Below are positions 18,329 to 43,120 of a stretch of 64,000 bases of DNA, one piece after another; positions within the stretch are counted from its first letter, which is position 1; the number at the start of each line of letters is the position of its first letter. A model generated the notes under the pieces. It ran no database searches, was not told the DNA's origin, and saw nothing but the letters and a program-made list of their open reading frames with translations. This DNA is from a candidate division FCPU426 bacterium (GTDB lineage Bacteria; Oederibacteriota; Muellerivitia; Muellerivitales; Muellerivitaceae), in assembly GCA_963771075.1 (NCBI GenBank), contig CAVYSE010000017.1, forward strand, positions 32,001-96,000. The letters run 5' to 3'. Position numbers and translations under genes: made by a program.

Positions 18329-19957
18329 TTATTTGCCTTGTTGGTACAGGTAATTCGCTAGGTCCTGGATTTGGTTCGGCGTCAACTGATCGGTGAAGCC
18401 CTGCATGGCCGCGTCCTTGTTCAACAGAACTGGGTTCTTGATGTAGGACGCGATGTAGTCCGCGTCGCGGGCCTGGCCGATATGCGAGAGGTCGGGGCCG
18501 ATTTCCTCGCCGACTCCGTGGAACTTGTGGCAGGAGGCGCAGTTGTCCTCGAAAAGCCGGGGCGCCTGGGCCGTGAAGCTCGCCCCGCCCAAACTGCTCA
18601 TATAAGAAACCAGGGCCTCCACTTCGCCGTCCATGAGCTTGAAATTGGGCATCTTGGTGCCCGGGGTGACCTTCTTCGGGTCGCGGAAATGCGCCGCCAG
18701 CCATTCCCGGTCCCTGCGCATGCCCACGTTATCCAAGGCGGGGCCCACCGATCCCCCGTGCCCGTTCAGGATGTGGCAGTATTCGCAATTGAGGGACTGG
18801 AAAAGCCGTTTTCCCTCGGTGATGAGGGGGTCTTTCTTGACCTCCGGGTTGGTCAAGGGCGATTGCGCCCCCAGGATGGTGAAGACGGCCAAGCCCGCGA
18901 TGGTCAGGAGGCCCGCGAGGGTCCATAAGGGCCTTTGAAGCGGATGGCGCAAGGTATTGCGGTCCAAAAAGGGCAGGCCGAATAAAATCCCGAACACGAT
19001 CAAGGGAAGCAGCACGATGGCGAAGGCCTCCAGTGATCCCGGGAAATATTTCAAGAGCTGGAAAACCGCTAGGAAGTACCACTCCGGGCGGGGGTTATAG
19101 GTCGTATCGGTCGGGTTCGCCAGGTCTTCCAGTTCCGCGGGTTTGAAATAAGCCACGAAGGCAAGCACAAGGAAAACCAGCAGGATCGCCAGGATGTCCT
19201 TGAAAATAATGTAGGGGAAGAAGGACAACCCCTGGGCCTTCAGCTGTAGATACCTTTGCTTGAAACGCGATTTCCAGTCCGGGGCCAAGGCTTCCTCTGT
19301 GTTCAATTTTTCGGGCGGGGCCGAAATGCCATGCCAAATGACCAAAAACAGGTGCAAGGCGATGAGGGAAAGGGCGATGGCGGGAAAAACCAGCACATGG
19401 ATGGCGTAAAAACGGGTCAGGGTCACGGCCCCCAGGTCCTGGCTTCCCTTCATGATTTTGGCCAGGTAGGGCCCCAAAATGGGCACCTGTTCCACCATGT
19501 GGGAACCCACGGTCGTGGCCCAATAGGCTTTCTGGTCCCAGGGCAATAGGTAACCGGTAAAGCCAAAACCAATCACGAGGCAGAACAGGCCCACGCCCGT
19601 CAGCCAGGTCACTTCCCGGGGGTACTTGTAGGCCCCCATGAAGAATACCCGAAGCAGGTGCAGGGTCACCGCCACCACCATGCCCGTGGCCCCCCACTTG
19701 TGGATGGCCCGGATCCACTTGCCCATGGGGACGTCGCTGCTGAGAAATTGGACGGAATCGTAGGCATGGTCGGGCGAGGGGGAATAATGCATGGCCAGAA
19801 GGATGCCCGTCACGACCTGGACTGTGAAGAGGAAAAGGGTCACACTCCCGAGCGTGTACCACCAGTTCACGCCCTTGGGGATGTGGCGGTCGAGGATGAC
19901 TTCTTTCACCTTTTTCCAGCCCGTGCGCTCGTCCAGCCAATCGAGGATCTCTTTCAT
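18329..19957 (-). CDS. Cytochrome b (unsplit b6 + subunit IV type) fused to two cytochrome c domains
   Basis: Heme b His pairs AIHKW..TLHLL and AIHVL..ALHLF; TGYLLPWDQ; PEWY; C-terminal CEYCH and CASCH. Confidence 0.92.
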   Translation of the reverse strand: MKEILDWLDERTGWKKVKEVILDRHIPKGVNWWYTLGSVTLFLFTVQVVTGILLAMHYSPSPDHAYDSVQFLSSDVPMGKWIRAIHKWGATGMVVAVTLHLLRVFFMGAYKYPREVTWLTGVGLFCLVIGFGFTGYLLPWDQKAYWATTVGSHMVEQVPILGPYLAKIMKGSQDLGAVTLTRFYAIHVLVFPAIALSLIALHLFLVIWHGISAPPEKLNTEEALAPDWKSRFKQRYLQLKAQGLSFFPYIIFKDILAILLVFLVLAFVAYFKPAELEDLANPTDTTYNPRPEWYFLAVFQLLKYFPGSLEAFAIVLLPLIVFGILFGLPFLDRNTLRHPLQRPLWTLAGLLTIAGLAVFTILGAQSPLTNPEVKKDPLITEGKRLFQSLNCEYCHILNGHGGSVGPALDNVGMRRDREWLAAHFRDPKKVTPGTKMPNFKLMDGEVEALVSYMSSLGGASFTAQAPRLFEDNCASCHKFHGVGEEIGPDLSHIGQARDADYIASYIKNPVLLNKDAAMQGFTDQLTPNQIQDLANYLYQQGK

Positions 19958-19959
19958 GG

Positions 19960-20460
19960 TCAACCCTCCGTGGGCAGGATCGAGACGACTCCGCTTTCCA
20001 CCTTCACGGAGTAGTGGTCCAGGGGCCGGGGAGGGGGGCCGGAAACCACCTTGCCACTCTTGTCGTAAACGCCGTTATGGCAGGGGCAGAGAAAAAGCTT
20101 CTGGTCCGCGTCCCAGCGGTAGGGACAGCCCAAATGGGTGCAATGGGGGTCGAAGGCCGTGAGCTTCCCCTGTTCCTTCAGCATCCAAACGTTGCCGCGG
20201 CTCTCGGTGGTAGCCCACCCGTCCATGATGCGCTGGATGAATTCCTTCTTGACCGGCTGGCCCTCGGGCAGGTCCTTTTCGAGGCCGATCTCGATCCAAT
20301 TTTCCTTCTTCCCCAGCCAGGCCGGGGAAAGGAAATAAACCGCCCCGCTTCCCCCGAGGACAAAAGCGATCACGCCGCCGATAAAGGCGATGGCCGCTCC
20401 CAGGAATTTTCGCCGCTCGGAATTCTCGGGTTCATTGTTTTTTTTATCCAACGGGCACAT
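19960..20460 (-). CDS. Rieske 2Fe-2S subunit of a bc-type complex
   Basis: Tat motif ERRKFL plus TM helix; CTHLGC, CPCH, GPPPRPL. Confidence 0.93.
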   Translation of the reverse strand: MCPLDKKNNEPENSERRKFLGAAIAFIGGVIAFVLGGSGAVYFLSPAWLGKKENWIEIGLEKDLPEGQPVKKEFIQRIMDGWATTESRGNVWMLKEQGKLTAFDPHCTHLGCPYRWDADQKLFLCPCHNGVYDKSGKVVSGPPPRPLDHYSVKVESGVVSILPTEG

Positions 20461-20525: not shown

Positions 20526-20918
20526 TTACTTCGCGGTGACGCTTTCGTCCGGGTTCCCTTCCCCGATCAAGCTCTTCAAATAAAGGGCCACCTCGTGGAT
20601 TTGATCGTCTGTCAATTTGCCCCGGTAGTTCGGCATCCGGTGTTTGCCCGAATCGACCATCGTCTCGATCTGGAACACGGACATGCGGACGACTTCATCC
20701 CGGTGCAGGTTGATTTTATCCCGGGTCACATTCAAGAGCTTGAGCATCTTGGGGTTTCCCGTGGCGTCCTTGGCATGGCAACGGGCGCATTTACCCTCGA
20801 AGAGTTTCTTTCCGGTCACCAGCTCGTCCCCGAACACCGTTGAAAAAGACAGGACATAACAAAGCAGGGCGAGAATAACCGGTATTGTTGTGGCGAATCC
20901 CCTCTTTGGCCTATTCAT
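20526..20918 (-). CDS. Periplasmic monoheme cytochrome c (paralog 4, divergent)
   Basis: Signal peptide; CARCH; RMPNYRGKLT. Confidence 0.85.
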   Translation of the reverse strand: MNRPKRGFATTIPVILALLCYVLSFSTVFGDELVTGKKLFEGKCARCHAKDATGNPKMLKLLNVTRDKINLHRDEVVRMSVFQIETMVDSGKHRMPNYRGKLTDDQIHEVALYLKSLIGEGNPDESVTAK

Positions 20919-21030
20919 GCGAACCTCCTCATTCTGCGGTTGAAAGGCGGGCATTGCAGCCGAATCCGCCGGCGGTCCAATGCCCATTCCATCCATTAAC
21001 CGGCTCCTTCGCTTCCCAACATTCCCCAAT

Positions 21031-21061: not shown

Positions 21062-21104
21062 AAACTGCCTTGAGTGGGGGAAATGAGACCATGCCCCGCC
21101 AAAC

Positions 21105-21470
21105 TTATTTCGCCGTTTGAAGGCTTTTCACGTACTGGACCACCTGTTGGATCTGGTCCGGGGTCAGCTTCCCCTTGAATTTGGGCATCTTGCCCTTGCC
21201 CGTCGAGACGATAGTGGCCAGGTCTTCCGCCTTCGCGGTGACGGCTGCGCCGCTGGTCAAATCCACCCGGGAAGGATCCACCTTCATGACCTTGGCGATC
21301 TTGGCGTTTCCCTTGGCGTCCTTGCCGTGGCATTGGGCGCACTTGGACTCGAAAAGCTTCTGGTTGGCGGGCACTGCGGCGTCCGCCCCATAAGCGTAGG
21401 TGCAGGTAAAGAGCAGGGCCGAGAAGAATATCCCCAATAGTGCCGCGACTTCCCTTAAGTACTGTTTCAT
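21105..21470 (-). CDS. Periplasmic monoheme cytochrome c (paralog 3)
   Basis: Signal peptide MKQYLRE..AYGAD; CAQCH; KMPKFKGKLT. Confidence 0.9.
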   Translation of the reverse strand: MKQYLREVAALLGIFFSALLFTCTYAYGADAAVPANQKLFESKCAQCHGKDAKGNAKIAKVMKVDPSRVDLTSGAAVTAKAEDLATIVSTGKGKMPKFKGKLTPDQIQQVVQYVKSLQTAK

Positions 21471-21610: not shown

Positions 21611-21688
21611 ATTGTGGCTAAAAGGGGGGATTAGGACGTCCGGGAAAAAACCGGGTTTATGCCGGAGGAACTCCGTAAAAAACACGGA
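21611..21688 (-). promoter_or_regulatory. Conserved tandem operator plus -10 element (site 1)
   Basis: TCCGGGAAAAAACCGGG at 21639, TCCGTAAAAAACACGGA at 21672; CACAAT (minus) at 21611-21616. Confidence 0.7.
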
Positions 21689-21719
21689 GATTTCATAGAA
21701 GGAAGGGGAAAATCCCCGT

Positions 21720-22067
21720 CTAATTCATTTTCCTTTTTGGGAGCTTCGCGGAGAAGAGGATCATGTTGAAGATGTGGACGATCCCCACCAACAGGCATTG
21801 CCACCCGAAATAACCGGCGGCCACCTTGATCATTTCATGCGCGTCCTTGAAGTCCTCCTGCCCATAAGCCATGCGGATGAAGATATAGCCGAAATTGATC
21901 AGGTAAAAACCGAGGTCCATCAAGGCCATTAGGGACTGGGACCCTTCCGATTTTTTTGGAAAGATGTAACTCAGGAAATAACTTCCATGCCGCTTCAAAA
22001 GCCTCGAAACAACGATGGTAAAAACGACTCCCAGCACCAGATAACAAAGGTCGAAGTAAATCACCAT
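21720..22067 (-). CDS. Small membrane protein, about 3 TM helices, function unknown
   Basis: Hydrophobic ORF preceded by GGAGG. Confidence 0.7.
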   Translation of the reverse strand: MVIYFDLCYLVLGVVFTIVVSRLLKRHGSYFLSYIFPKKSEGSQSLMALMDLGFYLINFGYIFIRMAYGQEDFKDAHEMIKVAAGYFGWQCLLVGIVHIFNMILFSAKLPKRKMN

Positions 22068-22109: not shown

Positions 22110-22337
22110 CTAAGACCTTTTCTGGCGTCCCTGAAATACCTTGTGCCTCACCAGGTCCTTCCATACGTTCGCCAGGTAAAGCACCAGCCCGAGCAGCAAC
22201 AGGGGCTGGCCGATGAAAAGATAAATCAAAAGCGTGACGGGTGAATTATACAGCAGCACCGTCAAGGCCGCCGCGGACCCCAAAAAACAGAGGACGAGGG
22301 CGACTTTCAGCCAGGGACCCAGGTCGAAAAAGATCAT
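22110..22337 (-). CDS. Small two-TM membrane protein coupled to the NapC/NirT gene
   Basis: MIFFDLGPWLKVALVLC...; ATGA overlap with the upstream stop. Confidence 0.7.
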   Translation of the reverse strand: MIFFDLGPWLKVALVLCFLGSAAALTVLLYNSPVTLLIYLFIGQPLLLLGLVLYLANVWKDLVRHKVFQGRQKRS

Positions 22338-22936
22338 GGGGCCGCCTCCGTGTTCCCCGGCGTATGGGCCGGCCCGTGACAGTCCAAGCAGGAAGTCCCG
22401 CCGGTCCTCAGGTCTTCCATGATGGCCAGGTGGGTGGGGGCCTCCAGGAACTTCTTGGACTCCCCGTGGCAATGCAGGCAGTTGGAGGTGTTGTAGGGCT
22501 TGTAAAGCTGGATGGGTTCCTTGACTTCCTTGAAGATATTCGCGTAAACGTGCCGGAGCCCATTCATCTTGGCCTTCTCGTCCCCGAAGAGGGAGTAGTC
22601 CGTATGGCAGGTGAAACACTGGTCTTCCCGGATGTAGCGGTTCTTGTAATGCAGGGACGCCAGGCTTTCGCTTTGCGGGTCCTTCATGTCGCGCACCCGG
22701 CTTTCCATGACGTGGCAGGAGGTGCAAAATGCGACGGTTTTGGAGGTTTCAAAGCTGACCCCCGTTCCAAACAGCAGCACGACCAGGGGCGAAATACCCA
22801 AGACCGCCAAAAGAAACCCCTTCAGCCAGTCCAAATTGGGTAGCGGCAAGGGGAACAGTAATACGATGAAACAGAAAAGCATCATCAGGGCCGCCGCGCC
22901 CACGCCTACCCATGTGAAAAAAACGATTTCTGTCAT
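22334..22936 (-). CDS. NapC/NirT (CymA/NrfH-like) tetraheme quinol dehydrogenase
   Basis: N-terminal TM helices; FCTSCHVM, CFTCH, CLHCH, CLDCH; AKMNGLRHV. Confidence 0.88.
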   Translation of the reverse strand: MTEIVFFTWVGVGAAALMMLFCFIVLLFPLPLPNLDWLKGFLLAVLGISPLVVLLFGTGVSFETSKTVAFCTSCHVMESRVRDMKDPQSESLASLHYKNRYIREDQCFTCHTDYSLFGDEKAKMNGLRHVYANIFKEVKEPIQLYKPYNTSNCLHCHGESKKFLEAPTHLAIMEDLRTGGTSCLDCHGPAHTPGNTEAAP

Positions 22937-25212: not shown

Positions 25213-27573
25213 TTACAATTTTGCCGTTAACGTCAGGCTGGCCATTTGAGCGGTATAGGGCGCGTCCCATCCTCCCAGAAACATATAATTTAAGGCGCCG
25301 GTAGCGGGTACTGATGAAATACTGCCTACACCGTCGGTTTGCCAATCGTTGACGTTATAAACCTCCAGGAGATAGCTTCCCCGCAGGCTCCAGGTCTCGC
25401 TGATGTGGTACGTAACCCCGAAATTGAAATCTTCCTTCCAATACATGGTATTGGGAAGACTTTGGGTGGGTTGATACACGGCCACCGTGACCGGAGCCCC
25501 GCCCTGTTGAATCACTTGGGAGACCGGAACTCCCGCCGCGGTCAAAGGAAATTGGTTGTTATATCCGCTGAAGATATAGTCACCGGTGTTGTTGGTAAGC
25601 GTCCAACGGGCGTCCAAGTCCACCTTCGAGTTCATCTGATAATTGCCCGCAAAGGAAAGATAGGTAGTGTTTTCCTGCTCATTGAGATACCAGACTTCAC
25701 CCGGGTTAAGCGGGTTTGATGGACTTATATTGCTCGGCCCGTTCGCTTGGTTGTAATTGTAGTTTTCCCAATTAACAGTCCCCGACAGGTTCAAATTGTC
25801 CAGAGGCTGCCAGACAGCCGAAAAGGTCGTGATGTCATGGTAATCGCTCAACAAGCCCAATTGAGTGTTCGAGTTGAGGATGGTCGCCGGAGCTCCGAGC
25901 GAGGTAGTGTAAACATCTCCAGTCAAAGCTTCCGAGCCAGGTTGATAATTATCCCCGCCGGTCGTCCAAGCCGCTGACAACCAAAGGTTTTTCGTGACAT
26001 CGAGCTTCACCTTGGTGGTGAACTCATTGACAACACGATCTGCGATATCATAACGCCGGAATGTGCTTGACAAGGCATCCCCATAGTCGAAAGGCGCATT
26101 GACAGTGCCCGCATTCGGTTGAATTTCCAGATCATTCGTCCAGTTCGACTGACTCGCCACCCGGTCGGAATAAGTGTAATCCCCGCTCACATCCAACCCG
26201 TGAAGAGGCTTCAGATCCAAACCACCCTTGGCGGTTTGCTCCGTGGTCGCCGAAATTTCCCGATCCTGATAATTTTCCCAATTGCAATCATAACCGGCAT
26301 TTAACTGAAGACCCCTCATCAGGGTATAGGTCGCCTTACCGCCCAGATCCTGATTGACCCAACCGAAGTTGTTATTGACCACATTACCGGTATTGACAGC
26401 CCAACTCGCGTCTTTGTCCACATAACCGGGGAAATCAAGGAGAGCGGTCATATCCGCCTGCTCGTAATCTTTATACCGTAAACTGACCACCAGATCCTTT
26501 GTGGGCCGGGAGGTCAAGACGTAATTCTGCGTCAAGATTTGGATACAACCATTCAAGGATTGATAAGCCAAACTGTTCGTGTTGGCAAGCGAGGTCGCCC
26601 CCGGCGGCATACCGGCCGCCGGCAAAGGATCCGCCGTATTCGCGGTATAGGGTAAAAAGGGCTGGTCTTGAGTCTCATAGCCCAGTGAAAAATCAGCGTT
26701 CGCGCGGGTTTCATTATTGATATCCAACAATCCGGAGATCTTGAACGTGTTGGCAAGATTGCTCGGCGCCAAGGAGGCTTGTTCGATACTCGAGGTGCCG
26801 GGTATGCTGTTAGCTTGAGCGGGATTTGACCAGATGATACTGGGAAGACTGTTTTCGTAATCCGAAATCTCGTAACTCGCCCTGAGCGCAAATCCTTTTC
26901 CGTCGTACTCCGCTTTGACATCGCTTTGCGTCGTGGTTTCGTTTAATTCCTGAGGAAGCTCCACCGCTGAGTAGAAAGCGATCGGCCGGCTTCCCGTGCG
27001 CCATTTCTGGTTGCCCCCGACCTCAATATCAAATTCCGGGCTGACTTGGTACTTGGCGGTACCCCCCAACACCGTGTCATGGAGGCCCATCGAAACAGGC
27101 TGGCCATTGGTGTTTTGGTAATTAAGCAAATTTTGGTATTCCTGCTGGCTGGACTGTCCCTGGTTTTCCAAAAGGAGCGATTGGGGAAGCAGGTAAAGAT
27201 TGGGCGAGGGATTGGACCAGATCGTCTCGCCGGTATTCGTGTAAAGATGCTGGTACTGCTGGAAGTTCACATCGACCGTCAGGTCATTCTGGTATTGCAT
27301 GTCCAGGCTGGCTTTCCGGTTGAACCCCCCACCGTCGCTAAAATCCAGGCCGAGGATCCCGTCTTCCCCCTCATAATCCAGCCTGCCGTTCATGACGGCT
27401 CCATCCGGCGAGGCCAGGTATTCGTTGAATTTCGCCTGGTCGGTGGGCTGCAGGTTCGCCTGGAACCCGGAGGTCACATCGCCCGACCATTGGTTGTCGG
27501 CAAAAACCGCCGTGGCGCAGGCCGTGAAGACCAACCCCGCCAGACATTTCCAGACCCGAAATTGATTCCCCAT
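25213..27573 (-). CDS. MtrB/PioB-family outer-membrane beta-barrel
   Basis: 786 aa with signal peptide; AKFNEY, LAPSN, QDQPFLPYT, RRYDIADR; directly downstream of the decaheme gene. Confidence 0.88.
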   Translation of the reverse strand: MGNQFRVWKCLAGLVFTACATAVFADNQWSGDVTSGFQANLQPTDQAKFNEYLASPDGAVMNGRLDYEGEDGILGLDFSDGGGFNRKASLDMQYQNDLTVDVNFQQYQHLYTNTGETIWSNPSPNLYLLPQSLLLENQGQSSQQEYQNLLNYQNTNGQPVSMGLHDTVLGGTAKYQVSPEFDIEVGGNQKWRTGSRPIAFYSAVELPQELNETTTQSDVKAEYDGKGFALRASYEISDYENSLPSIIWSNPAQANSIPGTSSIEQASLAPSNLANTFKISGLLDINNETRANADFSLGYETQDQPFLPYTANTADPLPAAGMPPGATSLANTNSLAYQSLNGCIQILTQNYVLTSRPTKDLVVSLRYKDYEQADMTALLDFPGYVDKDASWAVNTGNVVNNNFGWVNQDLGGKATYTLMRGLQLNAGYDCNWENYQDREISATTEQTAKGGLDLKPLHGLDVSGDYTYSDRVASQSNWTNDLEIQPNAGTVNAPFDYGDALSSTFRRYDIADRVVNEFTTKVKLDVTKNLWLSAAWTTGGDNYQPGSEALTGDVYTTSLGAPATILNSNTQLGLLSDYHDITTFSAVWQPLDNLNLSGTVNWENYNYNQANGPSNISPSNPLNPGEVWYLNEQENTTYLSFAGNYQMNSKVDLDARWTLTNNTGDYIFSGYNNQFPLTAAGVPVSQVIQQGGAPVTVAVYQPTQSLPNTMYWKEDFNFGVTYHISETWSLRGSYLLEVYNVNDWQTDGVGSISSVPATGALNYMFLGGWDAPYTAQMASLTLTAKL

Positions 27574-28926: not shown

Positions 28927-28981
28927 AAGGCTCTCCTTCCCGCCGCGGTTCACCAGCCCCGTTACTTTTCAACCTTCCCGA

Positions 28982-33326: not shown

Positions 33327-34783
33327 AGGGCGCTCCCGCGAGAACCCGGCCCCACCTTGGGTGGGTGCGCCGCGTCTTATCGGTTCCCATTTTCTGGAAA
33401 GTCCTGGGCATCGGGATGGTGGTGGCGATGCTGTTCGGGTCCGTGACCTTCTGGCAGTCGCGCACCTCCACGTTGAAAATCCTCCACCGGAATCTCACCC
33501 AGCGTTCGCTCGAGCTGGCCCGCTCCCTGGCCGTCCAGGTGGAATTGCCCCTCTTAATTGACAACACGATGTACATCCAGGAGATCCTGGCCCATTACAT
33601 GGAAACCATACCCGATATCCGCTATATCGTCGTCCACGACACCACGGGAAAAATCGTGGCCCATACCTTCCGCCAGGGCGTTCCGGAAAGCCTGCTCAAG
33701 GCTGAAACCATCCCCCCCGGGCAGGAAAGCCTTTCACGGGTCTTCACCAACTCCAACGGCCTGCTTTTCGATACGGTTTATCCCATCCTCCAGAACCAGG
33801 CGGGCGAGCTCGAGGTGGCGCTGACGGACCAGTCGGTCGTGGGCCAATTGTCCATGTTGAGCCGGGCCATTCTCTGGACCCTGGTTTTTTGCGTGGTCGT
33901 GGGGATCGGCTTGGCCTGGGTCCTGACCCACGTATTGACCCTGCCCCTCCACCACCTGGACCAGGCCGCCCATACCCTGGGCGAGGGAACATTCTCCGCC
34001 AAGTCGGAGATTTTTTACGACGATGAGATTGGGCGTCTGGCCTCCACCTTCAACCAAATGGCGAGCAACCTGGAAAAATACCGCCGGGAAATACTCGAGA
34101 AGGATAAAACCAGGCTCTTCCTTCTGGACAAGATCGTGCGGGCCCAGGAGGAGGAGCGCCGGACGATCTCCCGGGAACTCCACGACCAGATGGGCCAATC
34201 GCTTTCCGCGATCCTTTTCTCCCTTCAATCCGAAGGCAAATCCGGGGACGGCTCCCCCGGCAGCCACAAGCCCTTGGAAGTCAAATTGCGCGCACTCATT
34301 GGGGACGTCCAGAAGCTGGCCTGGAATATGCGCCCTTCCATCTTGGATGATTACGGGTTGGATTCGAGCCTGGCGCGTTACGCCGAGGAAATGTCCCGGC
34401 AGTTGGGAATCCCCATCGATTACCAACACCTGGGCCCCCCGGAGCACCACCGGTTACCGGAGCGCGTGGAAACCACCCTTTACCGCATCACCCAGGAAGC
34501 CGTCACCAACATCGCGAGACACGCGGCCGCCACCCGCGCCAGTATCGTGGTGATCCATCAGCTTGATAATGTGACCCTTTTGGTGGAGGATAACGGCCGC
34601 GGGTTCAAGGCCGACGATAAGGCGAAAGACGGGCTCCATAGCCTGGGGCTCACGGGCATGAGGGAAAGAGCCGGACTTCTGGGCGGGACCTGTGTCGTGG
34701 AGTCCGAGGTGGGAAAGGGTACCGCCGTGCGGATTCAAATACCCCTGGAAAAGGAGATGGGCTCATGGCAATCCGCGTCCTGA
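33323..34783 (+). CDS. Membrane sensor histidine kinase (HAMP, HisKA_3, HATPase)
   Basis: Two TM helices; DEIGRLA; QEEERRTISRELHDQMGQ; QEAVTNIARHA; EDNGRGF; GLTGMRER. Confidence 0.93.
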   Translation: MKGAPARTRPHLGWVRRVLSVPIFWKVLGIGMVVAMLFGSVTFWQSRTSTLKILHRNLTQRSLELARSLAVQVELPLLIDNTMYIQEILAHYMETIPDIRYIVVHDTTGKIVAHTFRQGVPESLLKAETIPPGQESLSRVFTNSNGLLFDTVYPILQNQAGELEVALTDQSVVGQLSMLSRAILWTLVFCVVVGIGLAWVLTHVLTLPLHHLDQAAHTLGEGTFSAKSEIFYDDEIGRLASTFNQMASNLEKYRREILEKDKTRLFLLDKIVRAQEEERRTISRELHDQMGQSLSAILFSLQSEGKSGDGSPGSHKPLEVKLRALIGDVQKLAWNMRPSILDDYGLDSSLARYAEEMSRQLGIPIDYQHLGPPEHHRLPERVETTLYRITQEAVTNIARHAAATRASIVVIHQLDNVTLLVEDNGRGFKADDKAKDGLHSLGLTGMRERAGLLGGTCVVESEVGKGTAVRIQIPLEKEMGSWQSAS

Positions 34784-35418
34784 TCGCCGACGACCATGCG
34801 GTCTTTCGCAGCGGCCTCAAGGCCCTTTTGGAAAAAGAAAAGGATATCACCGTGGTGGGGGAAACGGGGACGGGCCTGGAGACCATCAAGACCGCGGCCA
34901 AGACCCCACTGGACGTGCTTTTACTCGATATCAGCCTTCCCGACATCCCGGGCTCCAAGGTGGCCGAATCGGTTTTGCAGGATCATCCCCAAATGGCGAT
35001 CGTTATCTTGACCATGCACGCGGACGAATATTACCTTCAGGAAATGCTGAAAATCGGGGTTCGAGGTTACATGCTTAAAAAATCATCGGGAGCGGATTTG
35101 ATCCAGGCCATCCGGGCCGCCCACCGGGGCGAATCCTACCTGGACCCCGCCTTGGCTTCCAATGTCATCAACTCTTACGTAGGCGCCGGAAAAGGAAAAA
35201 GAAAAACGGGGCGGTTGGACCTTTTGACCCGCAGGGAGCAGGAAATATGCGCCTTGCTGGCGTTCGGCCACACGAACGGGGAAATTGCCGAAAAACTTTC
35301 CATTTCCGAGCGGACGGTGGAAACTCACCGCGTCAACATCCTTTCGAAACTGGGGCTCAAAAGTCGGGCCGAATTGGTTCGGTTCGCCATCGACAACAGC
35401 CTGGTGAAGTTCACATAG
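34765..35418 (+). CDS. NarL/LuxR-family response regulator
   Basis: IADDH, LLDISLP, LTMH, LTRREQE, TVETHRVNILSKLG. Confidence 0.95.
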   Translation: MAIRVLIADDHAVFRSGLKALLEKEKDITVVGETGTGLETIKTAAKTPLDVLLLDISLPDIPGSKVAESVLQDHPQMAIVILTMHADEYYLQEMLKIGVRGYMLKKSSGADLIQAIRAAHRGESYLDPALASNVINSYVGAGKGKRKTGRLDLLTRREQEICALLAFGHTNGEIAEKLSISERTVETHRVNILSKLGLKSRAELVRFAIDNSLVKFT

Positions 35419-35527: not shown

Positions 35528-36390
35528 TTATTTTTTTATCATAAAAGGCACGATGAGCGAGTCATAGGCTTGGCTCCAAACCCGGTATCGCTCATCCGCG
35601 TCCTTCGAGGTCATCAACTCGTTGACCCTTTCCTCCGGCATGAAATTCTTGTTCGAATTCAAGACGTCGATTTTCAACTGTTCGTTCAGGACGTCGTCTT
35701 GGTAAGGCAGGGATAATTTCTGGCAATGGTTGATCCAGACATTCTCATAAAAATTCCAGGCGTCCTTCCGGGTTTCCTGTTCCACCAGGTCCTGCTCCAG
35801 GATAAACGTATCGCGGCCGATCTTGCCATGCAAGGCCCGCTGGCACACCTTGATGTACGCGGCAGATTTTCTGGCGTTGAAAAGCTCGAAAATCGTTTGG
35901 TACCACAACATGGGGCCGTCTTTGGATTTTCCCTTCAGTTCAGCCTGGTCTTTCAGCGAGCCGACGCCTCCGTAATCTTTGGAAATATAAATGTGGATCT
36001 TGGAATCTGGCGGCCCAAAGGTGACGCCCCCGTCCAGGTCGGCATCCTGCGGGTTGGAAGGCGATGGATCCCACTGAACCTCGACTCGTGAAATTTCCCC
36101 CGCGAATTGCCGGACGGTCCAGTTCCAGAGGTCATCCCCCACGTTGATATAGGGCGCCATGACGGGCCGGTCTTTGAGCATTTTCCGCAATTGCTTTTCC
36201 CCCCACTTCAACCGCTCCGGGGATAAGTCGCGGGGGGTTCCGTAGATGAGTTTGATTTCATCATCGCACCATTGATTGACTTGTTGGGGGCTCAAACCGC
36301 CCCATACCCCCGCTTCTTTGCAAAAAGACGGGTGGGGGAAAAAAGAAGGCCCCCTACACACAAGCCTAATAGAATCGCCGTTCGCTTCAT
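35528..36390 (-). CDS. Secreted hypothetical protein with a probable 1-bp deletion after the signal peptide
   Basis: ATG at 36390 gives MKRTAILLGLCVGGLLFSPTRLFA; the long ORF continues in another frame; span 863 = 3n-1. Confidence 0.6.
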
Positions 36391-36535: not shown

Positions 36536-37735
36536 TTAAGAGCTTTTCTTGGTTGAAGAAAGCCACGGGGGCAAGAGACGGGTCAAGACCCAAAGAATCA
36601 AGAAGGGCAGGATCAAAAGGAACCCGGCGATCAAAAACCCTTCCCGGCCCCATAATTCGGGTTCAAAGGTTCGAAGGCCCTCCCAACTCTTGGAAAAAAG
36701 CTGGCCTCCGATGACCATATTACAACGGTCCGCGAACACGCCGATGAGCACGAGGAAGGCGGAAACCAAATGGAACCACTCCCGCGTTTTTTCGGGAATT
36801 TTGAAGGCCTGGGTGCTGCCCAAGAGGGCGAGGGGCAAAAGCGTCCCCAGGCCTAATTGGATGACGATCAGGGATTGGAATAACTTCTCAAAAACCAGCT
36901 GGAACAGGATATTAAGGGATTCTTCCGAAGCGTAAAACCGGTGGGCCCCATCCAGCCCTTCCAGGGCAAAATCCACGATCAAGAGGTAAAAAAGAAATTT
37001 CCCCATCACGTCCAGGCAGGGCATTTGGAGGGGCACTTTCCGTATGAGGCTGGTCACAAAATAAACCACCATCATCAGGGCGATGCCCGAAACAATGGCG
37101 GAAAACATGAAGTTCACCGACATCATGGCCGACCCCCACCAGGGGTTGGATTTGACGGTGCTGAAAATGAGGGCCACATAGCCCGGCAGGAATAAGGCCG
37201 CCGGAATGCCGATGGTCCCGATCACCTTTCCCGCCTTTTGGTCGATGGCCAGGGCTTTTTCGGAAGTGTCCTTCACCCCGAGCGTAAGCAGGCCATAAAA
37301 TCGGCCCATCCATCCGGGTTTGGTTTTGGAAAACCCCACCAAGTCCGCCCGGTAGTTGTACCAAATCTCCAGGAACATCACGATCAAATAGGCCCCATAA
37401 ACGAACCCAAACATGGCCATGGGGGATGTCCAATGCGGGGTGATCAGAATTTCAAAACCCCTCAAGGGGTGTTCCAGGTGGAACAAGAGCGGGAGAGGCG
37501 CGACCAGGAGCAGGGAAAGGGAGGTTAGCATCGCCAGGCGTTGAATGGGCCTGATGTCATGAAACTTGAAAACCTTCTCCAGGGAAACCAGGATGAATGC
37601 ACCCGCCTCCAGGCCCACCAAATAGGGATAGATCACGATCAGGATGCTCCAAATCAATACCGACTCATTGGGGTAAATGTAACCCATGATCGGATGGAAA
37701 GGTTCGAAGAGGGACCGCCCCGTTTGGATATCCAT
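36536..37735 (-). CDS. NrfD/PsrC-family membrane subunit (copy 2)
   Basis: Collinear paralog of 28982-30184; true start MDIQTG overlaps the upstream TAA. Confidence 0.88.
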   Translation of the reverse strand: MDIQTGRSLFEPFHPIMGYIYPNESVLIWSILIVIYPYLVGLEAGAFILVSLEKVFKFHDIRPIQRLAMLTSLSLLLVAPLPLLFHLEHPLRGFEILITPHWTSPMAMFGFVYGAYLIVMFLEIWYNYRADLVGFSKTKPGWMGRFYGLLTLGVKDTSEKALAIDQKAGKVIGTIGIPAALFLPGYVALIFSTVKSNPWWGSAMMSVNFMFSAIVSGIALMMVVYFVTSLIRKVPLQMPCLDVMGKFLFYLLIVDFALEGLDGAHRFYASEESLNILFQLVFEKLFQSLIVIQLGLGTLLPLALLGSTQAFKIPEKTREWFHLVSAFLVLIGVFADRCNMVIGGQLFSKSWEGLRTFEPELWGREGFLIAGFLLILPFLILWVLTRLLPPWLSSTKKSS

Positions 37736-38520
37736 TATTTCACCGCCATATCGAGGCCCACGTAGTAAACCTTCGGTTGGGTCCCCATGTAGGGTTTCAA
37801 CACCTGGATCTGGTTCTCCGCCAGGAAGGCATGGATGGGGCTTTGGGGGTCCTTCAGGTCGCCGAATTTCCGGGTGCCTGTGGGACAAACCTCCACGCAG
37901 GCCGGCTGGAGTCCGCGAGTAATCCGGTGGTAGCAAAAGGTGCACTTCTCGGCGGAGTGGGTGATCGGGCTGAAGAACCGGCAGCCGTAAGGACAGGTCT
38001 CCACGCAGAAACCGCAGCCGATGCAGTAATTGGTATCCACCAGGTCCACCCCATCCGGGGAACGGAAGGTGGCTCCCGTCGGACAAACCTGGGAGCAGGG
38101 GGAATTCGCGCAATGGTTGCACATTTTAGGCAGGAAAAAGGTCCGGTCCTCCCCTTGAAGCTTGGCGATGGGCGGAAAGCCATCCTTCCCCCCGTTGGGC
38201 GAGTCGATATAAACCACTTGGCCGTTCCTTGCCTCGTACCTTTCCACCCAGGTCCTGAAATAATGGGGCTCGTCGGGCACGCCATTTTCCGCCTTGCAGG
38301 CGGCCACGCAGCTTCCGCACCCAATGCACTTCTCCACGTCAATGCAGTAGCACCAATTATGGTCCTCGGGTTTGTAGCCTTCCGGAAGGACATCGGCGCC
38401 CCGGGCCTTTCGCGGGGCCCAGAAAAACAAGCCCGAGAGAACGGAAGACACCACTGCGGAACATTTCAAGGCCAACTTCATGAACTGCCTGCGGGAGAGG
38501 GTCTCGGTCACCAGTTTCAT
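37735..38520 (-). CDS. NrfC/PsrB-type 4x[4Fe-4S] protein, Tat-exported (copy 2)
   Basis: SRRQFMK; four Cys clusters; ends VYYVGLDMAVK like copy 1. Confidence 0.92.
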   Translation of the reverse strand: MKLVTETLSRRQFMKLALKCSAVVSSVLSGLFFWAPRKARGADVLPEGYKPEDHNWCYCIDVEKCIGCGSCVAACKAENGVPDEPHYFRTWVERYEARNGQVVYIDSPNGGKDGFPPIAKLQGEDRTFFLPKMCNHCANSPCSQVCPTGATFRSPDGVDLVDTNYCIGCGFCVETCPYGCRFFSPITHSAEKCTFCYHRITRGLQPACVEVCPTGTRKFGDLKDPQSPIHAFLAENQIQVLKPYMGTQPKVYYVGLDMAVK

Positions 38521-38963
38521 GGGTTCTCCGGATGATGGGGATTGTGACAGCTCAGGCAATCCACGTCGGGATTATGCTCGGCCTCGATCACCTGGGGAAA
38601 GGACTTCCGGCGAAATTCGTTCATACCGTGGCACTTGAGGCACCGGATATTCGTTAAGGTCGTGACAGGAGCGGAAACGGTGGGATCCTCCACGTGGGCC
38701 TCGGAAGGCCCATGGCAATTTTCGCAGCTGATGCCGGCGTGCTTGGAATGGTTGATTTCCTTCACCTTTGCGTCATGGCAATCCACGCAGGCTTTTTTGC
38801 CCGCAAAATGGATGGGTTTGGACGCTAGCTCGCCCAAAGCCGCACCCCGGTAATGGCCGTATTGACCAAAGGAAGCCGGATAAAAATAAGCCCGAACCAC
38901 CAGGAAAAGCACAAGCAGGGTCAGCACGATCACGAAGGGTTTCCAGATTTGCTCGGGAATCAT
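38517..38963 (-). CDS. Membrane-anchored tetraheme cytochrome c (copy 2)
   Basis: CVDCH, CENCH, CLKCH, CLSCH; paralog of 30966-31412. Confidence 0.88.
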   Translation of the reverse strand: MIPEQIWKPFVIVLTLLVLFLVVRAYFYPASFGQYGHYRGAALGELASKPIHFAGKKACVDCHDAKVKEINHSKHAGISCENCHGPSEAHVEDPTVSAPVTTLTNIRCLKCHGMNEFRRKSFPQVIEAEHNPDVDCLSCHNPHHPENP

Positions 38964-39050
38964 TTTTACTCCGCCCATAGGGGGTGAATCGGTCTAGGAG
39001 TGGAATAAAGCCCCACCCCAGCGCGACAGCCGACCACCCGATGATTTCGA

Positions 39051-39419
39051 TTACTTCGTAGCCGCTATCCCCTGCAAGGAACGGAGATATTGGACCACAT
39101 CGGCGATTTCTTGCGCTGTCAGCTTGCCCGTGTATTTCGGCATTTTTTTCTTGCCGACGGCGATGGACTTGGCGGTGGCCTCGTCGGTCAATTTCACCAC
39201 GGTGGGCCGGGTCATATCCAAGGACGAGGGGTCCACTTTCAAAAGCGTGGACATCTTGACCACGCCCTTGGCGTCCTTGCCATGGCACGAAGCACACTTG
39301 GCGCCATAATTTTGCTGGGCCGCCGTCAGGTCCGCCCCTTGGGCGTAAGTGGAGTTGAAAAGAAGGACTGATAGAAGAATGCCTAAAAACACCACGATTT
39401 CCCGGATGTGCTGTTTCAT
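39051..39419 (-). CDS. Periplasmic monoheme cytochrome c (paralog 1)
   Basis: CASCH; KMPKYTGKLTAQEIADVVQYLR shared with 31518-31886. Confidence 0.9.
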   Translation of the reverse strand: MKQHIREIVVFLGILLSVLLFNSTYAQGADLTAAQQNYGAKCASCHGKDAKGVVKMSTLLKVDPSSLDMTRPTVVKLTDEATAKSIAVGKKKMPKYTGKLTAQEIADVVQYLRSLQGIAATK

Positions 39420-39505: not shown

Positions 39506-39583
39506 ATTCTACTCACGGGAAAAAAAGAATTCGTCCGTGGAAAAGGACGTTTTGTGGCCTGCGCGCTCCGTAAAAAGTACTGA
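39506..39583 (-). promoter_or_regulatory. Conserved tandem operator plus -10 element (site 4)
   Basis: TCCGTGGAAAAGGACGT at 39534, TCCGTAAAAAGTACTGA at 39567; TAGAAT (minus) at 39506-39511. Confidence 0.75.
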
Positions 39584-40014
39584 CCCAGCGGCGTTCGATA
39601 CCTGTTTTCTCCCGAATGGGCTTTCCCGCACGGCCCCGAAGCGTCCCGGAAACCCCTGCGGATCATAATGTGATAAGTGAAAAGGACGAGCTATCGGGAG
39701 CGGCGGGCCTTTTTCCTTCTTTGTATAAATGGCAGGAAGGGAATGAAACCATGGGCCGCGATTAAATGGGTTGTCGCCAGCAGACAGCTAAAAAGCAAAT
39801 GTATGAGCCAAATCCCGATTGATTCCGATATGCAGAGATTTTTCCCACCCATTCTTTTCTTCTCCAGGGTCCGTCTTGATCTTCTCCATTACTTTCTTGA
39901 AACTAATAGCAAGCTTTCGACTGTTGGTTGATAATACCAGCTTCTCATTCGGTTTGCGGCCATGGCCCCCCAAGCAACTGGCCGGTAAATTTCACCTAGG
40001 GAAAGAAGGAAAAA

Positions 40015-41655
40015 ATGAAATTCAAAGCGGTATGGGCATTGTTACTTTTAACCATGCCCCCCCTTTTCGCCGGGGAGCTTGACTTCAAGTCCCTTTCCTT
40101 GGTGCCGATCCAGGAGGGAGGGCGGGTGAAACCACTCGACACCTTCGCGAGGGAAAGCGTCCGTTTGATTACGGGCCATGAGACGTTCGAGGGCCGGCCC
40201 GCGATGGATTTGGCCTGGGATTGGCTTTCCCACCCGCAAGAGTGGGACCGCAAGAATTTTATCCTGGTGGAAAACCTGGATCTCCGGGGCCTTTTGGGTG
40301 TTCCCAAGGATCAAAAATTCGTGTCTCCCCAGGTGTTAAAAAACCAAGAGGATTTCATGGTCTTGGCTCGTTCCAGCTTTGACAAACAGCAGAAAAAAGT
40401 GGCTTTGAACGCCATGGAGCAGGAATCCCTGGAAGTGTTAACGCGTTTAGAGAGTCTGGAGAGCCTGGAATCGGGCGATGCCCTCACCGTGGTCCCTTTT
40501 CCCGATTCTCCTACCCAACCATGGGCCTCCCTGGGGGATTTGCAAAGGGCCCATCAGCAGGACGGCAAAAAGATGCCTGATTCCGCGAGGGAGGTCCTCC
40601 TGGCTTTCGCCGGACTCCTGCAAAGTTATGAAAGCCATGACTTCCCTGAATTTACGAAGAATTCCCATCTTTTTTCCCAGGCCCTGGAAAGGATCGGGGG
40701 CAAGAATTACGCGGATTTCTCGAAAATTTCGCTGGAAGTCCAATTTAACTCATTGAAACCCTTCCAACTGGCCTGGATGATCCACTTGTTCGCCGCCCTT
40801 TTAATGGGGATTTCAGTTCTCTTTCACCTTCCCCGGCTTTTCAAGCCGGGTTTGCTCGTCTTTGCCGCCGGGATTTTGACCAGCGCCTATGGGTTCATCC
40901 TGCGATGCCTGATTGCCGGTCGGCCTCCAGTCTCCAATATGTACGAGTCGCTGATCTGGGTCATCTTCGGAATGACGGTATTCGCGCTCATTTTCGAACT
41001 GGTCACCCATAACCGCCAGTTCGCGCTTTCGGGCGCGATTCTGGCCGTGATCGGTTTCGTGCTGGCCGACAACGTGCCCACCATCATGGATTCCTCCATC
41101 CAGCCGCTCGAGCCGGTATTGCGAAGCAATTTCTGGCTGACCATCCACGTCTTGACCATCACCTTAAGCTACGCCGCATTCTTGCTCTCCCTGGGCATAG
41201 GCCATTTGTGCCTTTGGACGATCTGGAAGCACGGGGAGGACAAAGACAGGCTCCAGAAACAAACCAAAGTCCTTTACCGGGTCGTGCAGGTGGGCGTGGT
41301 GCTGTTGGCGGCAGGAACCATCTTAGGCGGAGTTTGGGCCAGTTACTCCTGGGGAAGGTTTTGGGGTTGGGATCCCAAGGAAACTTGGGCCTTGATCGCC
41401 CTTCTGGGATACGTGGCGATCCTGCATGGCCGCTTGGCGGGATGGCTCCGGGAAGTGGGTTTCACCATCGGCGTGGTGTCGGCATTCCTGGGAGTCCTGA
41501 TGGCCTGGTACGGGGTGAACTTCATTCTCGGCGTGGGTCTTCACAGCTACGGCTTTTCCAAGGGCGGGTTGCCTTACGTCACAACTTTTGTCGCGGTGGA
41601 AATTATTTTAATTGTATTTGTGGGTTTGCAGTCCGCTAAAAAACGGGTTTCCTGA
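40015..41655 (+). CDS. ccsA: System II cytochrome c synthase CcsA/ResC
   Basis: GRVKPLDT, RPPVSNMYES, FWLTIHV, WWD motif WGRFWGWDPKETW, GLHSY. Confidence 0.92.
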   Translation: MKFKAVWALLLLTMPPLFAGELDFKSLSLVPIQEGGRVKPLDTFARESVRLITGHETFEGRPAMDLAWDWLSHPQEWDRKNFILVENLDLRGLLGVPKDQKFVSPQVLKNQEDFMVLARSSFDKQQKKVALNAMEQESLEVLTRLESLESLESGDALTVVPFPDSPTQPWASLGDLQRAHQQDGKKMPDSAREVLLAFAGLLQSYESHDFPEFTKNSHLFSQALERIGGKNYADFSKISLEVQFNSLKPFQLAWMIHLFAALLMGISVLFHLPRLFKPGLLVFAAGILTSAYGFILRCLIAGRPPVSNMYESLIWVIFGMTVFALIFELVTHNRQFALSGAILAVIGFVLADNVPTIMDSSIQPLEPVLRSNFWLTIHVLTITLSYAAFLLSLGIGHLCLWTIWKHGEDKDRLQKQTKVLYRVVQVGVVLLAAGTILGGVWASYSWGRFWGWDPKETWALIALLGYVAILHGRLAGWLREVGFTIGVVSAFLGVLMAWYGVNFILGVGLHSYGFSKGGLPYVTTFVAVEIILIVFVGLQSAKKRVS

Positions 41656-41713
41656 CCGGTTGGATGTTGAAAGCCCCGATGAAAACCCGGCGGCATGATT
41701 CAAGGGGGAACGC

Positions 41714-43120
41714 ATGTTTCGAAACAATGGTTTTTTAAAATCCCTGGCCTCCATCAAACTGGCCGTCACTTTGTTGGCTTTGCTTATCCTCTCCCTGATC
41801 GTTGCCACTACCCTGGAATCGGTTTATTCCACCGAGGCGGCCCAGGCCATGGTGTACGGTTCCCCTTGGTTCAGCTTTTTGCTCGGGTTTTTGGCCGTCA
41901 ATGTCCTCTCATCGGCACTCATCCGTTATCCCTGGAAAGGGCACCAAGCGGGTTTCTTGATGGCCCACCTGGGGATCCTGGTTATCCTGGCCGGTTCCTG
42001 GGCGACGCGCGCCTTTGGCGTCGACGCCCGGATCTCCCTCGCCGAGGGTATGGCCAGTTCGCAAATACTGGAGAACCGCCCTACTTTCTATTTCCAGGAA
42101 GAGAACCAGCCTTATCAAATACGCCCCCTTTCTTTTCCCTGGTTCAAGCCTTCTCCCCAACACCCCTGTGTTTATTCGCCCCAGGAAGGGGTCACCGTTG
42201 CCTTGGATCAATTCTATCCAAACGCGAAGGGCATCGTGGAGGGACGGCCCGTCGACGCAGGAAAAGGTCCCAGCTTGGCGACGGTTCATGTCAAATTGGA
42301 AGGCTCCATGGCCAACCAGGATTTCTGGCTCTTTCTGGGCCATCCCGGAATGGACCGGCTGGTGTTAGGGCCGGCCGCTGTCGTTTTACAGAAAGCTTCG
42401 CACTGGAACCCTTCCAGCTTCGCGGGGCTGAGCCCCAATATCCTGGCCCTTCTTTTGAACAACGACGGAAGCCTGTCATACCGCATCCGCCGCCGGAGCC
42501 AATGGGAACCCGAGAGGAGCCTACCCAAGGGCCAAGCGGAGGACACCGGTTGGGCGGACATGCGCTTTACCTTGGTCGATTTTCTTCCCAGTGCCCTTCC
42601 GGAAACCATTTACGAACCCCAGCCTTTTGGCCACCAACAATCACCCCAACCCGCCCTTCATTACCGCCTCTCCACCTCGACCGGAGCACAAGAAGGATGG
42701 CTAAGTTATGACGGCAGTTCCTCTATCCACCTAGGCGGGCGTTTTTTCACGCTGGCCTATGGTGAAAAACAATCGGAACTGCCCTTCTCGCTTAAACTCT
42801 TGAAATTTCATGTCGGAATGAATCCCGGGACCGACCAACCGGCTTCCTTCCAAAGCTTGGTTCTCGTTGAAACTCCCGGAAAAGAAATGGGGGCCCCTAT
42901 TACCATCGAAATGAATCATCCCCTCAAGCAGGGCGGCTATGTTTTCTATCAGGCCAGCTATCAACCCATGGATAACGGCGGTTATCTCTCGGTTTTATCC
43001 GTGGCCCGGGATCCAGGAATGGAGCTGAAATACGCCGGTTCCCTGATCCTTGTGGCCGGTATCTCCTTCATGTTTTGGTTCAAGAAAACTCTCACCATTA
43101 AGGATTCCGTCCAAGCCTAG
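41714..43120 (+). CDS. System II cytochrome c biogenesis ResB/CcsB-like protein
   Basis: LASIKLAV, AHLG, MNHPL, FYQASY, RDPG. Confidence 0.85.
   Translation: MFRNNGFLKSLASIKLAVTLLALLILSLIVATTLESVYSTEAAQAMVYGSPWFSFLLGFLAVNVLSSALIRYPWKGHQAGFLMAHLGILVILAGSWATRAFGVDARISLAEGMASSQILENRPTFYFQEENQPYQIRPLSFPWFKPSPQHPCVYSPQEGVTVALDQFYPNAKGIVEGRPVDAGKGPSLATVHVKLEGSMANQDFWLFLGHPGMDRLVLGPAAVVLQKASHWNPSSFAGLSPNILALLLNNDGSLSYRIRRRSQWEPERSLPKGQAEDTGWADMRFTLVDFLPSALPETIYEPQPFGHQQSPQPALHYRLSTSTGAQEGWLSYDGSSSIHLGGRFFTLAYGEKQSELPFSLKLLKFHVGMNPGTDQPASFQSLVLVETPGKEMGAPITIEMNHPLKQGGYVFYQASYQPMDNGGYLSVLSVARDPGMELKYAGSLILVAGISFMFWFKKTLTIKDSVQA

Follow-up and report, generated by a model that had tools for sequence, protein, structure and literature searches.

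A candidate menaquinol-to-exterior electron circuit around an MtrAB conduit in a candidate division FCPU426 bacterium

Introduction

Cyc2 and MtrAB without MtrC serve as genomic markers of iron oxidation, and the factor that sets the direction of electron transfer is an open question. The same question is raised by a locus at positions 18329..43120 of a 64,000-nucleotide stretch (the window) of contig CAVYSE010000017.1 from a candidate division FCPU426 bacterium, which encodes a decaheme-porin pair (MtrAB) together with several quinone-linked modules. We analyzed the window with the genome that holds it (G000) and its relatives (G001, etc.; C denotes a contig and L an extracted stretch), using 99 genomes of the phylum and 31 of the family. 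An earlier sequence-only reading had proposed a circuit between the cell surface and the quinones, and this is still the best reading, as the modules are co-conserved and four units stand behind one upstream motif. With regard to direction, we give about an even chance to a co-regulated circuit from menaquinol to the exterior for anaerobic electron export.

Shared upstream motif and sensor system

A 55-bp bipartite direct-repeat element precedes four units, namely c1b-c1a-Rieske-cytochrome b, mtrA-mtrB, and two modules of a tetraheme, a 4Fe-4S protein and an NrfD-family subunit (modules 1 and 2). The leave-one-out scores were 30-40 bits, and the motif was found only at these four positions of the genome (next best 20 bits); 24 other stretches scanned gave 15.8 or less. 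Three of the copies, each ahead of a paralogous monoheme gene, may have a common origin, whereas the mtrA copy does not precede such a gene. Beyond G000, the family has close orthologs of the sensor kinase only in G021 and G011; a distant one is in G053, from another family. In G021 and G011 the motif (35.7 and 24.3 bits, respectively) lies directly before a type B Cyc2-like gene, described below, that is divergent from the kinase gene. We infer that the response regulator of this sensor system binds the bipartite motif.

The periplasmic binding protein of the sensor system is closest to ArrX/AioX, ArrX being the best match in the structural database, and it was not found in any of the five relatives tested. 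Among the seven ArrX/AioX pocket residues (Tyr88, Cys106, Tyr131, Ser161, Ser163, His192 and Asp210), two are identical, one Ser is replaced by Thr, and Cys106 is replaced by Gly. Arsenic sensing was rejected on the basis of these two matches out of seven and the missing arsenic-binding Cys. Scans for sigma-70 promoters and terminators performed at or under chance.

Both module promoters contain a short imperfect palindrome on the downstream side of the motif (window 31970-31990 and 39496-39516), a possible second regulator site. In another family, a complete binding protein-kinase-regulator set lies beside tatA and cytochromes with 13, 11 and 19 haems (L308:5906-17418, G053:C27), indicating that this sensor type travels with multiheme clusters.

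Co-conservation of the modules

In the phylum, MtrB was found in 10 of the 99 genomes and the NrfD subfamily in 9, and 8 genomes had both. CcsA was found in 53 of the 99, so the overlap is not merely a reflection of the capacity to make cytochromes. In the family, a Cbc4-like module (the tetraheme-FeS-NrfD type) occurred in 3 of the 4 MtrAB genomes versus 0 of the 27 others. Since kin are not independent, the co-occurrence counts and Fisher tests are descriptive only. G014, from another genus, has nearly the same package in one rearranged locus, consisting of mtrA-mtrB-lipoprotein, one module, Rieske/cytochrome b-cc, monohemes, ccs, tatA and tatC; this locus is without NapC and the sensor, and a second module lies elsewhere in the genome. 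The order mtrA-mtrB-napC-pentaheme-Rieske-cytochrome b was observed in G042, and monoheme-napC-module-pentaheme-Rieske-cytochrome b forms one run in G043. In G028 and G041, a module and mtrAB are no more than 16 kb apart and have larger multihemes around them. MtrB was not found in the three other genomes of the window's genus. We did not claim a link between contigs C189 and C151 of G075 through ccsA, because they showed no exact overlap and further CcsA matches exist.

We also inspected the 80 nearest MtrA loci of other lineages. The NrfD subfamily was present within 10 kb at 9 of them, Rieske and cytochrome b at 10, and both at 2; a module beside MtrA is a recurrent minority pattern there. 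Around the 80 nearest NrfD loci of other lineages, Rieske and cytochrome b were nearby at 11. In 24 of these 80 loci, mostly from Acidobacteriota, the Cbc4-like module is followed by a multi-helix membrane protein of 570-610 aa with no Pfam match (e.g., L137:11222-12949), which is not in G000.

Probable exchange of the outer-membrane partner at the bc operon

Close orthologs of the cytochrome b-cc (at least 62%; two split) were found in 18 family genomes including G000, most of them without MtrB, and the neighbourhoods were annotated in all 18. The outer-membrane partner was a Cyc2-like monoheme porin in 13, MtrAB in 3, and unsettled by contig breaks in 2. In the 13 Cyc2-like loci, the stretch of contig ahead of the Rieske gene also encodes a monoheme and a 420-470-aa protein (the slot protein). 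Features of the slot proteins are a signal peptide, a terminal aromatic residue and a single CxxCH immediately preceded by an AxPxF[AS]R motif. Type A was found in G024, G003, G074, G001 and G018, and type B in G015, G021, G071, G076, G005, G007, G009 and G004. MtrAB is the neighbour in G000, G014 and G013 (10.6 kb away in the last), with no Cyc2-like gene seen in the region. In the two interrupted cases, type B (G011) or MtrAB (G075) is on another contig. The Cyc2 consensus is AXPXFAR[QK][TY] before CxxCH and PXL after it (Keffer 2021). Type A differs by one substitution (Ser for Ala), and type B fits partially and lacks PXL; the slot proteins thus appear to resemble Cyc2 by this motif, with deviations.

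In G003, a 99% complete genome of the same genus, two contigs overlapping by 55 bases give the order rfaE, monoheme, Cyc2-like, Rieske and cytochrome b, and the genes downstream of cytochrome b are the same as in the window, i.e., the chromosomal slot is identical. In G001, the Cyc2-like gene after rfaE breaks into exosortase-like sequence (L208:1-4840, contig C37) and its other half is on C136; contig C37 may be chimeric.

The cytochrome b-cc tree comprised 17 rows, omitting the two split genes and including one row from outside the family; in this tree, unrooted and without a one-clade test, the MtrAB label required at least three changes and formed a single group in 0% of the bootstrap trees. 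The window cytochrome b-cc fell in a clade (support 100/99) with MtrAB, type A and type B genomes of other genera, not with its own genus. The simplest reading would be repeated exchange of the partner, with lateral replacement of the resident operon in the window genome. The Rieske/cytochrome b operon is family-wide while its outer-membrane partner varies; what stays constant beside the bc complex is a conduit rather than an oxidase.

Properties of the conduit and the inner-membrane modules

The decaheme scored 258.7 bits with TIGR03508 (DmsE; cut-off 192.2) and aligned with Shewanella MtrA (6R2Q_A) across all ten haems (E 5.5e-54). The 786-aa protein scored 222.5 bits with Pfam MtrB_PioB (PF11854; cut-off 23), and a four-row alignment matched MtrB (6R2Q_B, E 9.6e-16), which removes the doubt that it might not be MtrB-like. 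Its TIGR03509 score was under the cut-off (153.8 vs 240), pointing to a divergent member of the MtrB family. In the MtrA tree, a quick tree only, the four family rows formed a clade of their own (SH-aLRT 97) whose nearest outside rows were from Elusimicrobiota; the decaheme did not group with the Gallionellaceae or Rhodopseudomonas rows and is hence outside the MtoA and PioA clades. Single-sequence locus searches with MtrB and MtrA gave no close loci. 

A haem-less lipoprotein is encoded after mtrB in the window and G014, but not in G075, and its look-alikes in the atlas are carbohydrate-binding-like (a lead only). Considered as a stand-in for MtrC, it was judged not to be required, with only one homolog found and its gene not following mtrB in G075. 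Two contigs of a peat metatranscriptome run, of 241 and 166 letters, were nearly identical to parts of mtrB and mtrA (word share 0.05). These were rejected as a sign of expression, as they are contigs only and may originate from DNA.

Modules 1 and 2 each have an anchored tetraheme, a 4Fe-4S protein and an NrfD-type subunit without a catalytic subunit, which is the make-up of Cbc4 (CbcSTU), already named in Geobacter (Fernandes 2025 preprint). The NrfD subunit was far under the TIGR03148 cut-off, and that of module 1 had at least 8000 homologs, the best among the matches listed being 60-83% identical. The two modules with their monohemes are 65-78% identical to each other and stem from one duplication. 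The 'four alternative ports' of the sequence-only reading are thus reduced to three kinds (Cbc4-like, NapC and bc). The NrfD of module 2 has Pro at a position that is His in the other 39 of the 40 aligned rows.

The NapC-family tetraheme scored 56.7 bits with PF03264 (cut-off 24.1), was under the NrfH and NapC equivalog cut-offs, and showed only a weak match to NrfH 2J7A (E 1.7). According to the spacing that we assume for the quinol site, Lys is present and His occupies the place where Asp is expected. The cytochrome b-cc retains His88/102/189/204, PEWY and two CxxCH..M; with four haem b His ligands, PEWY, the Rieske boxes and a c-type subunit, all hallmarks of a Rieske/cytochrome b complex are present. 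Box 2 of the Rieske protein reads CPCHNGVY. High-potential Rieske proteins carry Ser in box 2, and the lack of this Ser makes the window protein likely to be of the menaquinol type. The four monohemes are cytochrome c6-like with His/Met ligation.

Gene content of the locus and respiratory background of the host

The anatomy proposed earlier (decaheme, porin, modules, NapC, bc complex, monohemes, tatA, ccsA/resB and sensor) was recovered gene by gene (Table 1), and so were all 28 CxxCH motifs, which in a six-frame scan lay in-frame in nine minus-strand genes (2+1+1+4+10+4+1+4+1) inside 18329-43120. The NrfD, 4Fe-4S, NapC/NirT, Rieske, cytochrome b-cc, TatA, CcsA, ResB, HisKA_3 and LuxR-type matches were all above the Pfam cut-offs, and the GC content of the locus is about the same as that of its flanks. 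Features beyond those of the sequence-only reading are the haem-less lipoprotein after mtrB, three ORFs that are small or of no assigned function, the PhnD-like subunit of the sensor, and the four motif copies. The absence of MtrC, NrfA and a catalytic molybdoenzyme from the window extends to the whole genome: we found no NrfA pattern, no catalytic molybdoenzyme (the sole match to the molybdopterin family is to a fragment of NuoG within the nuo operon), and no further open reading frame (ORF) with 9-10 haem motifs that could be a surface decaheme MtrC/OmcA. Contrary to the earlier suggestion, the locus is not self-contained, because the sole tatC is on another contig, the futalosine menaquinone genes are outside the locus, and a second ccsA/resB exists in the genome.

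Table 1. Genes and motif copies of the locus, in window positions
Position	Strand	Feature	Basis or remark
18329..19963	-	Cytochrome b fused to two class I c haems (cyt b-cc), 544 aa	PF00033/PF00032/PF00034
19960..20460	-	Rieske 2Fe-2S protein, twin-arginine signal	PF00355, PDB matches
20526..20921	-	Monoheme cytochrome c (c1a), His/Met type	PF13442/PF00034, distal Met motif
21105..21470	-	Monoheme cytochrome c (c1b), His/Met type	Pfam, distal Met motif
21635..21689		Bipartite motif copy 1	Upstream of c1b-c1a-Rieske-cyt b
21720..22067	-	115-aa membrane protein	No Pfam match; ortholog ahead of bc operon in G013 (53% identity)
22110..22340	-	76-aa two-helix membrane protein after napC	Hydropathy; weak 18-bit match after napC in G043
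22334..22936	-	NapC/NirT-family tetraheme (CymA/ImoA/NrfH-like)	Two N-terminal helices
23053..23331	-	TatA	PF02416, TIGR01411
23484..25070	-	Predicted haem-less lipoprotein	Lipobox-like LPAC; two domains with Thr/Pro linker between
25213..27573	-	MtrB/PioB-family outer-membrane porin, 786 aa	
27600..28673	-	DmsE/MtrA-family decaheme, 357 aa	Without PioA-type long N-terminal extension
28873..28927		Bipartite motif copy 2	Upstream of mtrA
28982..30184	-	NrfD-family membrane subunit, module 1 (CbcU-like)	PF03916
30184..30969	-	Tat-exported 4Fe-4S protein, module 1 (CbcT/NrfC-like)	
30966..31412	-	Membrane-anchored tetraheme, module 1 (CbcS-like)	4 CxxCH, one N-terminal helix
31518..31886	-	Monoheme cytochrome c (c1c)	First gene of module 1
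32004..32058		Bipartite motif copy 3	Upstream of module 1, divergent from sensor genes
32277..33326	+	ArrX/AioX-like (PhnD-like) periplasmic binding protein without arsenic-binding Cys	ArrX E 4.6e-47
33323..34783	+	Sensor histidine kinase	sCache, HAMP, HisKA_3
34765..35418	+	NarL/LuxR-type response regulator	
35528..36361	-	277-aa ORF	No Pfam or NCBIfam match
36536..37735	-	NrfD-family subunit, module 2	68% identical to module 1 copy
37735..38520	-	Tat-exported 4Fe-4S protein, module 2	78% identical to module 1 copy
38517..38978	-	Membrane-anchored tetraheme, module 2	65% identical to module 1 copy
39051..39419	-	Monoheme cytochrome c (c1d)	First gene of module 2; 75% identical to c1c
39530..39584		Bipartite motif copy 4	Upstream of module 2, divergent from ccsA
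40015..41655	+	CcsA-type cytochrome c maturation protein (system II)	PF01578; 65% paralog on contig C28
41714..43120	+	ResB-type cytochrome c maturation protein	PF05140

The genome (4.39 Mb, 96.7% complete) contains lipid A and Kdo genes; its nearest named PyrG is from Ca. Firestonebacteria (66%), AhcY and the protein atlas yielded no taxonomic placement, and near-identical DNA was found in soil or unlabelled metagenomes of three studies. Complex I, an aa3-type oxidase, a bd oxidase and NiFe hydrogenases are encoded elsewhere, and a 751-aa protein reads as qNOR-like. Outside the locus, the only ORF with three or more haem motifs is an octaheme (933 aa) that comes after another Rieske/cytochrome b pair and a membrane protein (C28:83729-89296). 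Genes for haem A and oxidase assembly follow downstream, and this set is probably the aerobic bc complex. No CdhC was found in the genome, and the only RuBisCO match looks like form IV (RuBisCO-like). From this background we infer that the host is a facultatively aerobic heterotroph.

Several further observations were made in the genome. Next after a third Rieske/cytochrome b pair comes a bd-oxidase-like subunit that carries a haem c at its C-terminus (C7:261116-264126). A run of a cupredoxin, a rubrerythrin-like protein, a polyferredoxin membrane protein, a cupredoxin-dihaem cytochrome and a Cyc2-like gene (C24:105932-110848, L209) recurs in G004; the Cyc2-like gene of G000 matches the full consensus motif. 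At C11:440572-445386 (L210), a 362-aa signal-peptide protein with one CxxCH, a porin-like C-terminus and no Pfam or NCBIfam match adjoins Thr/Pro-rich proteins with a C-terminal haem motif. A PorV/PorQ-like protein (window 58103-59257) and 74 Thr/Pro-repeat ORFs in the genome suggest a surface protein export route like the type IX secretion system (T9SS). Several nuo genes appear as split ORFs (C11:59294-66868), possibly from sequencing frameshifts.

Direction of electron transfer

In a circuit for export, complex I and other dehydrogenases would reduce menaquinone. The Rieske/cytochrome b-cc would oxidise menaquinol in a Q-cycle for higher-potential acceptors, and the Cbc4-like modules and NapC would provide lower-potential exits suited to the decaheme. 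Monoheme cytochromes or the anchored tetrahemes would relay electrons to MtrA, held in MtrB. Under oxygen shortage, MtrA could then reduce acceptors whose access to the terminal haem does not depend on MtrC; humic quinones and Fe(III) complexes in soluble or colloidal form are examples. Binding of the response regulator to the bipartite motif would co-regulate the four units.

Export is favoured by the futalosine menaquinone genes, by a genome that offers the modules no catalytic sink in the periplasm, and by a motif that is unique to the locus and tracks the kinase ortholog. The Cbc4-like modules also arrive with the decaheme, which fits the outward transfer of electrons to PpcA by Geobacter CbcS (Eapp -151 mV). 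The bc complex is predicted to be transcribed with the outer-membrane conduit, not with an oxidase, which would fit a conduit serving as its terminal module; the aerobic chain appears to have its own bc (C28, with oxidase assembly genes, and the aa3 and bd oxidases elsewhere). With neither CdhC nor a RuBisCO other than form IV, the host would hardly require reverse electron flow. Transcription of Mtr-like clusters has been reported for anoxic peat heterotrophs whose kit of aa3, bd and group 3 hydrogenase is similar (Fiorito 2026 preprint).

Several points weigh against export. MtrAB without MtrC, combined with monohemes and NapC, is the uptake layout of Sideroxydans. His/Met c6-like monohemes are usually too positive to reduce a decaheme efficiently. 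The search for ATP-citrate lyase, which gave no match in the controls, was uninformative. Deletion of cbcS leaves metal reduction by Geobacter unimpaired. Cyc2-like proteins are the partner in 13 of the 18 family genomes, and those Cyc2 proteins that have been tested oxidise iron (Keffer 2021). None of the 80 nearest NrfD loci of other lineages, 44 of which have full 10-kb flanks, contained MtrA or MtrB within 10 kb, and MtrB was found anywhere in only 5 of the 50 genomes tested out of these 80. The NrfD module was rejected on these counts as a general MtrAB marker, and with the bc complex present in many MtrB-less relatives, the modules are not specific to MtrAB.

Electron uptake is the strongest competitor, though less probable than export. 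MtrAB, or Cyc2 in the relatives, would oxidise Fe(II), mixed-valent minerals or reduced humics in a mixotrophic iron oxidiser, with monohemes carrying electrons downhill to the aa3 oxidase and NapC, the Cbc4-like modules or a reversed bc carrying them uphill to menaquinone. The Cyc2-like porin in the same slot in relatives is consistent with this. Cyc2 of PV-1 is a validated oxidase (+208 mV), and in strain ES-1 Cyc2 serves for dissolved Fe(II) and MtoA for solid Fe(II). A MtoA-PmcA-ImoA and MtoD-to-oxidase model has been published, the aa3 oxidase is present, and G000 has the full-consensus Cyc2-like gene beside cupredoxin-cytochrome genes. However, no oxidase was seen in the annotated conduit-bc loci (a bd-like gene is nearby in G024 and a COX1-family piece 8 kb off in G021), no CO2-fixation marker was found, and the decaheme is outside the Gallionellaceae and Rhodopseudomonas rows of the quick tree. 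The slot proteins also deviate from the consensus, and the function of divergent Cyc2 has been called uncertain. The sequence-only reading leaned to uptake, which is not established, since neither MtrA/MtrB trees nor the lack of MtrC fixes the direction (Baker 2022).

A bidirectional redox buffer, in which an outside pool of humic quinones or Fe is charged and discharged over oxic-anoxic swings with no fixed direction, seems improbable. It would suit three kinds of port of likely different potentials, the facultative oxidase set, and the ability of MtrCAB and ImoA to work either way, but one motif ahead of all four units suggests a single inducing condition. Equally doubtful is the idea that independent respiratory cassettes accumulated at a single insertion site, with Cbc4-like, NapC and bc serving partners in the periplasm that have no connection to MtrAB. 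In its favour, every module is found on its own elsewhere, G000 and G014 differ in gene order, MtrB was not found in the rest of the genus, and the bc gene groups with another genus. This leaves unaccounted for the common motif, the repeated co-location in G014, G028, G041, G042 and G043, the NrfD subfamily at 9 of the 80 MtrA loci inspected in other lineages, and the lack of another periplasmic sink in the genome.

Export by the MtrAB circuit might also be one instance of a wider arrangement, which we put forward only tentatively. The family may have a menaquinol-oxidising bc complex with a plug-in outer-membrane terminal (two Cyc2-like types or MtrAB) that was swapped repeatedly, sometimes under one regulator, and that exports electrons, the Cyc2-like proteins being terminal reductases and the Cbc4-type module the low-potential adaptor of the decaheme. 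A family alternating Cyc2-like proteins and MtrAB at the same bc, site and motif provides a natural experiment on direction. The unsolved Cbc4-type module gains a concrete candidate partner, and an uncultured soil lineage emerges that may use iron or humic acceptors; such use is believed to suppress methane in peat.

Comparison with known systems

Every part of the locus is of a known kind, and the combination is a variant. New here are the apparent swap of Cyc2-like proteins and MtrAB at the bc operon, the co-occurrence of Cbc4 with MtrAB in the family, and the shared motif. In the published full texts searched, with subscription papers outside the search, neither the combination of MtrAB, Cbc4-like, bc and NapC in this lineage nor a Cyc2/MtrAB exchange at a bc operon was described. 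In a peat genome paper on MBNT15, FeS/NrfD/multiheme modules were proposed for iron reduction. The main text of Fiorito 2026 on peat clusters for extracellular electron transfer is without NrfD, Rieske and FCPU426, and its supplements may list such loci. Other nearest published works are He 2017, Zhong and Shi 2018, and a Desulfobacterota paper.

The Mto cluster of Sideroxydans lithotrophicus ES-1 (MtoA, MtoB, MtoD, PmcA and ImoA) also unites a decaheme and a porin without MtrC, monohemes and a NapC-family protein. However, ES-1 is an autotroph with ubiquinone, whereas the window genome has menaquinone genes and no CO2-fixation marker was found in it. The window, unlike ES-1, also has the Cbc4-like modules and the bc complex, and its decaheme is in a separate clade. 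In Aeromonas, NetBCD, whose subunit make-up we take to be Nrf-like, is a comparable case. This inner-membrane module is clustered with the MtrCAB conduit (Baker 2022). Aeromonas has MtrC and PdsA, both lacking in the window, and its direction was shown to be reductive.

The sensor genes have the same order as the AioXSR/ArrXSR arsenic sensors (binding protein, kinase, regulator), but the pocket matches at two of seven residues with Gly for Cys106, the regulator is of the NarL/LuxR type, and the genome has no arsenic molybdoenzyme. The slot proteins of the relatives, not encoded in the window, share the signal peptide, motif, size and terminal aromatic residue with the fused cytochrome-porins of the Cyc2 type (Mariprofundus, Acidithiobacillus, Leptospirillum Cyt572), and differ from them by the Ser for Ala in type A and the missing PXL in type B. 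Cbc4 of Geobacter sulfurreducens (CbcS/CbcT/CbcU, GSU0068-0070) has the same subunits in the same order and no catalytic subunit, a likeness by make-up, not by direct sequence comparison. Geobacter Cbc4 uses Ppc trihemes, whereas the window module has a monoheme at its head, is duplicated, and adjoins MtrAB.

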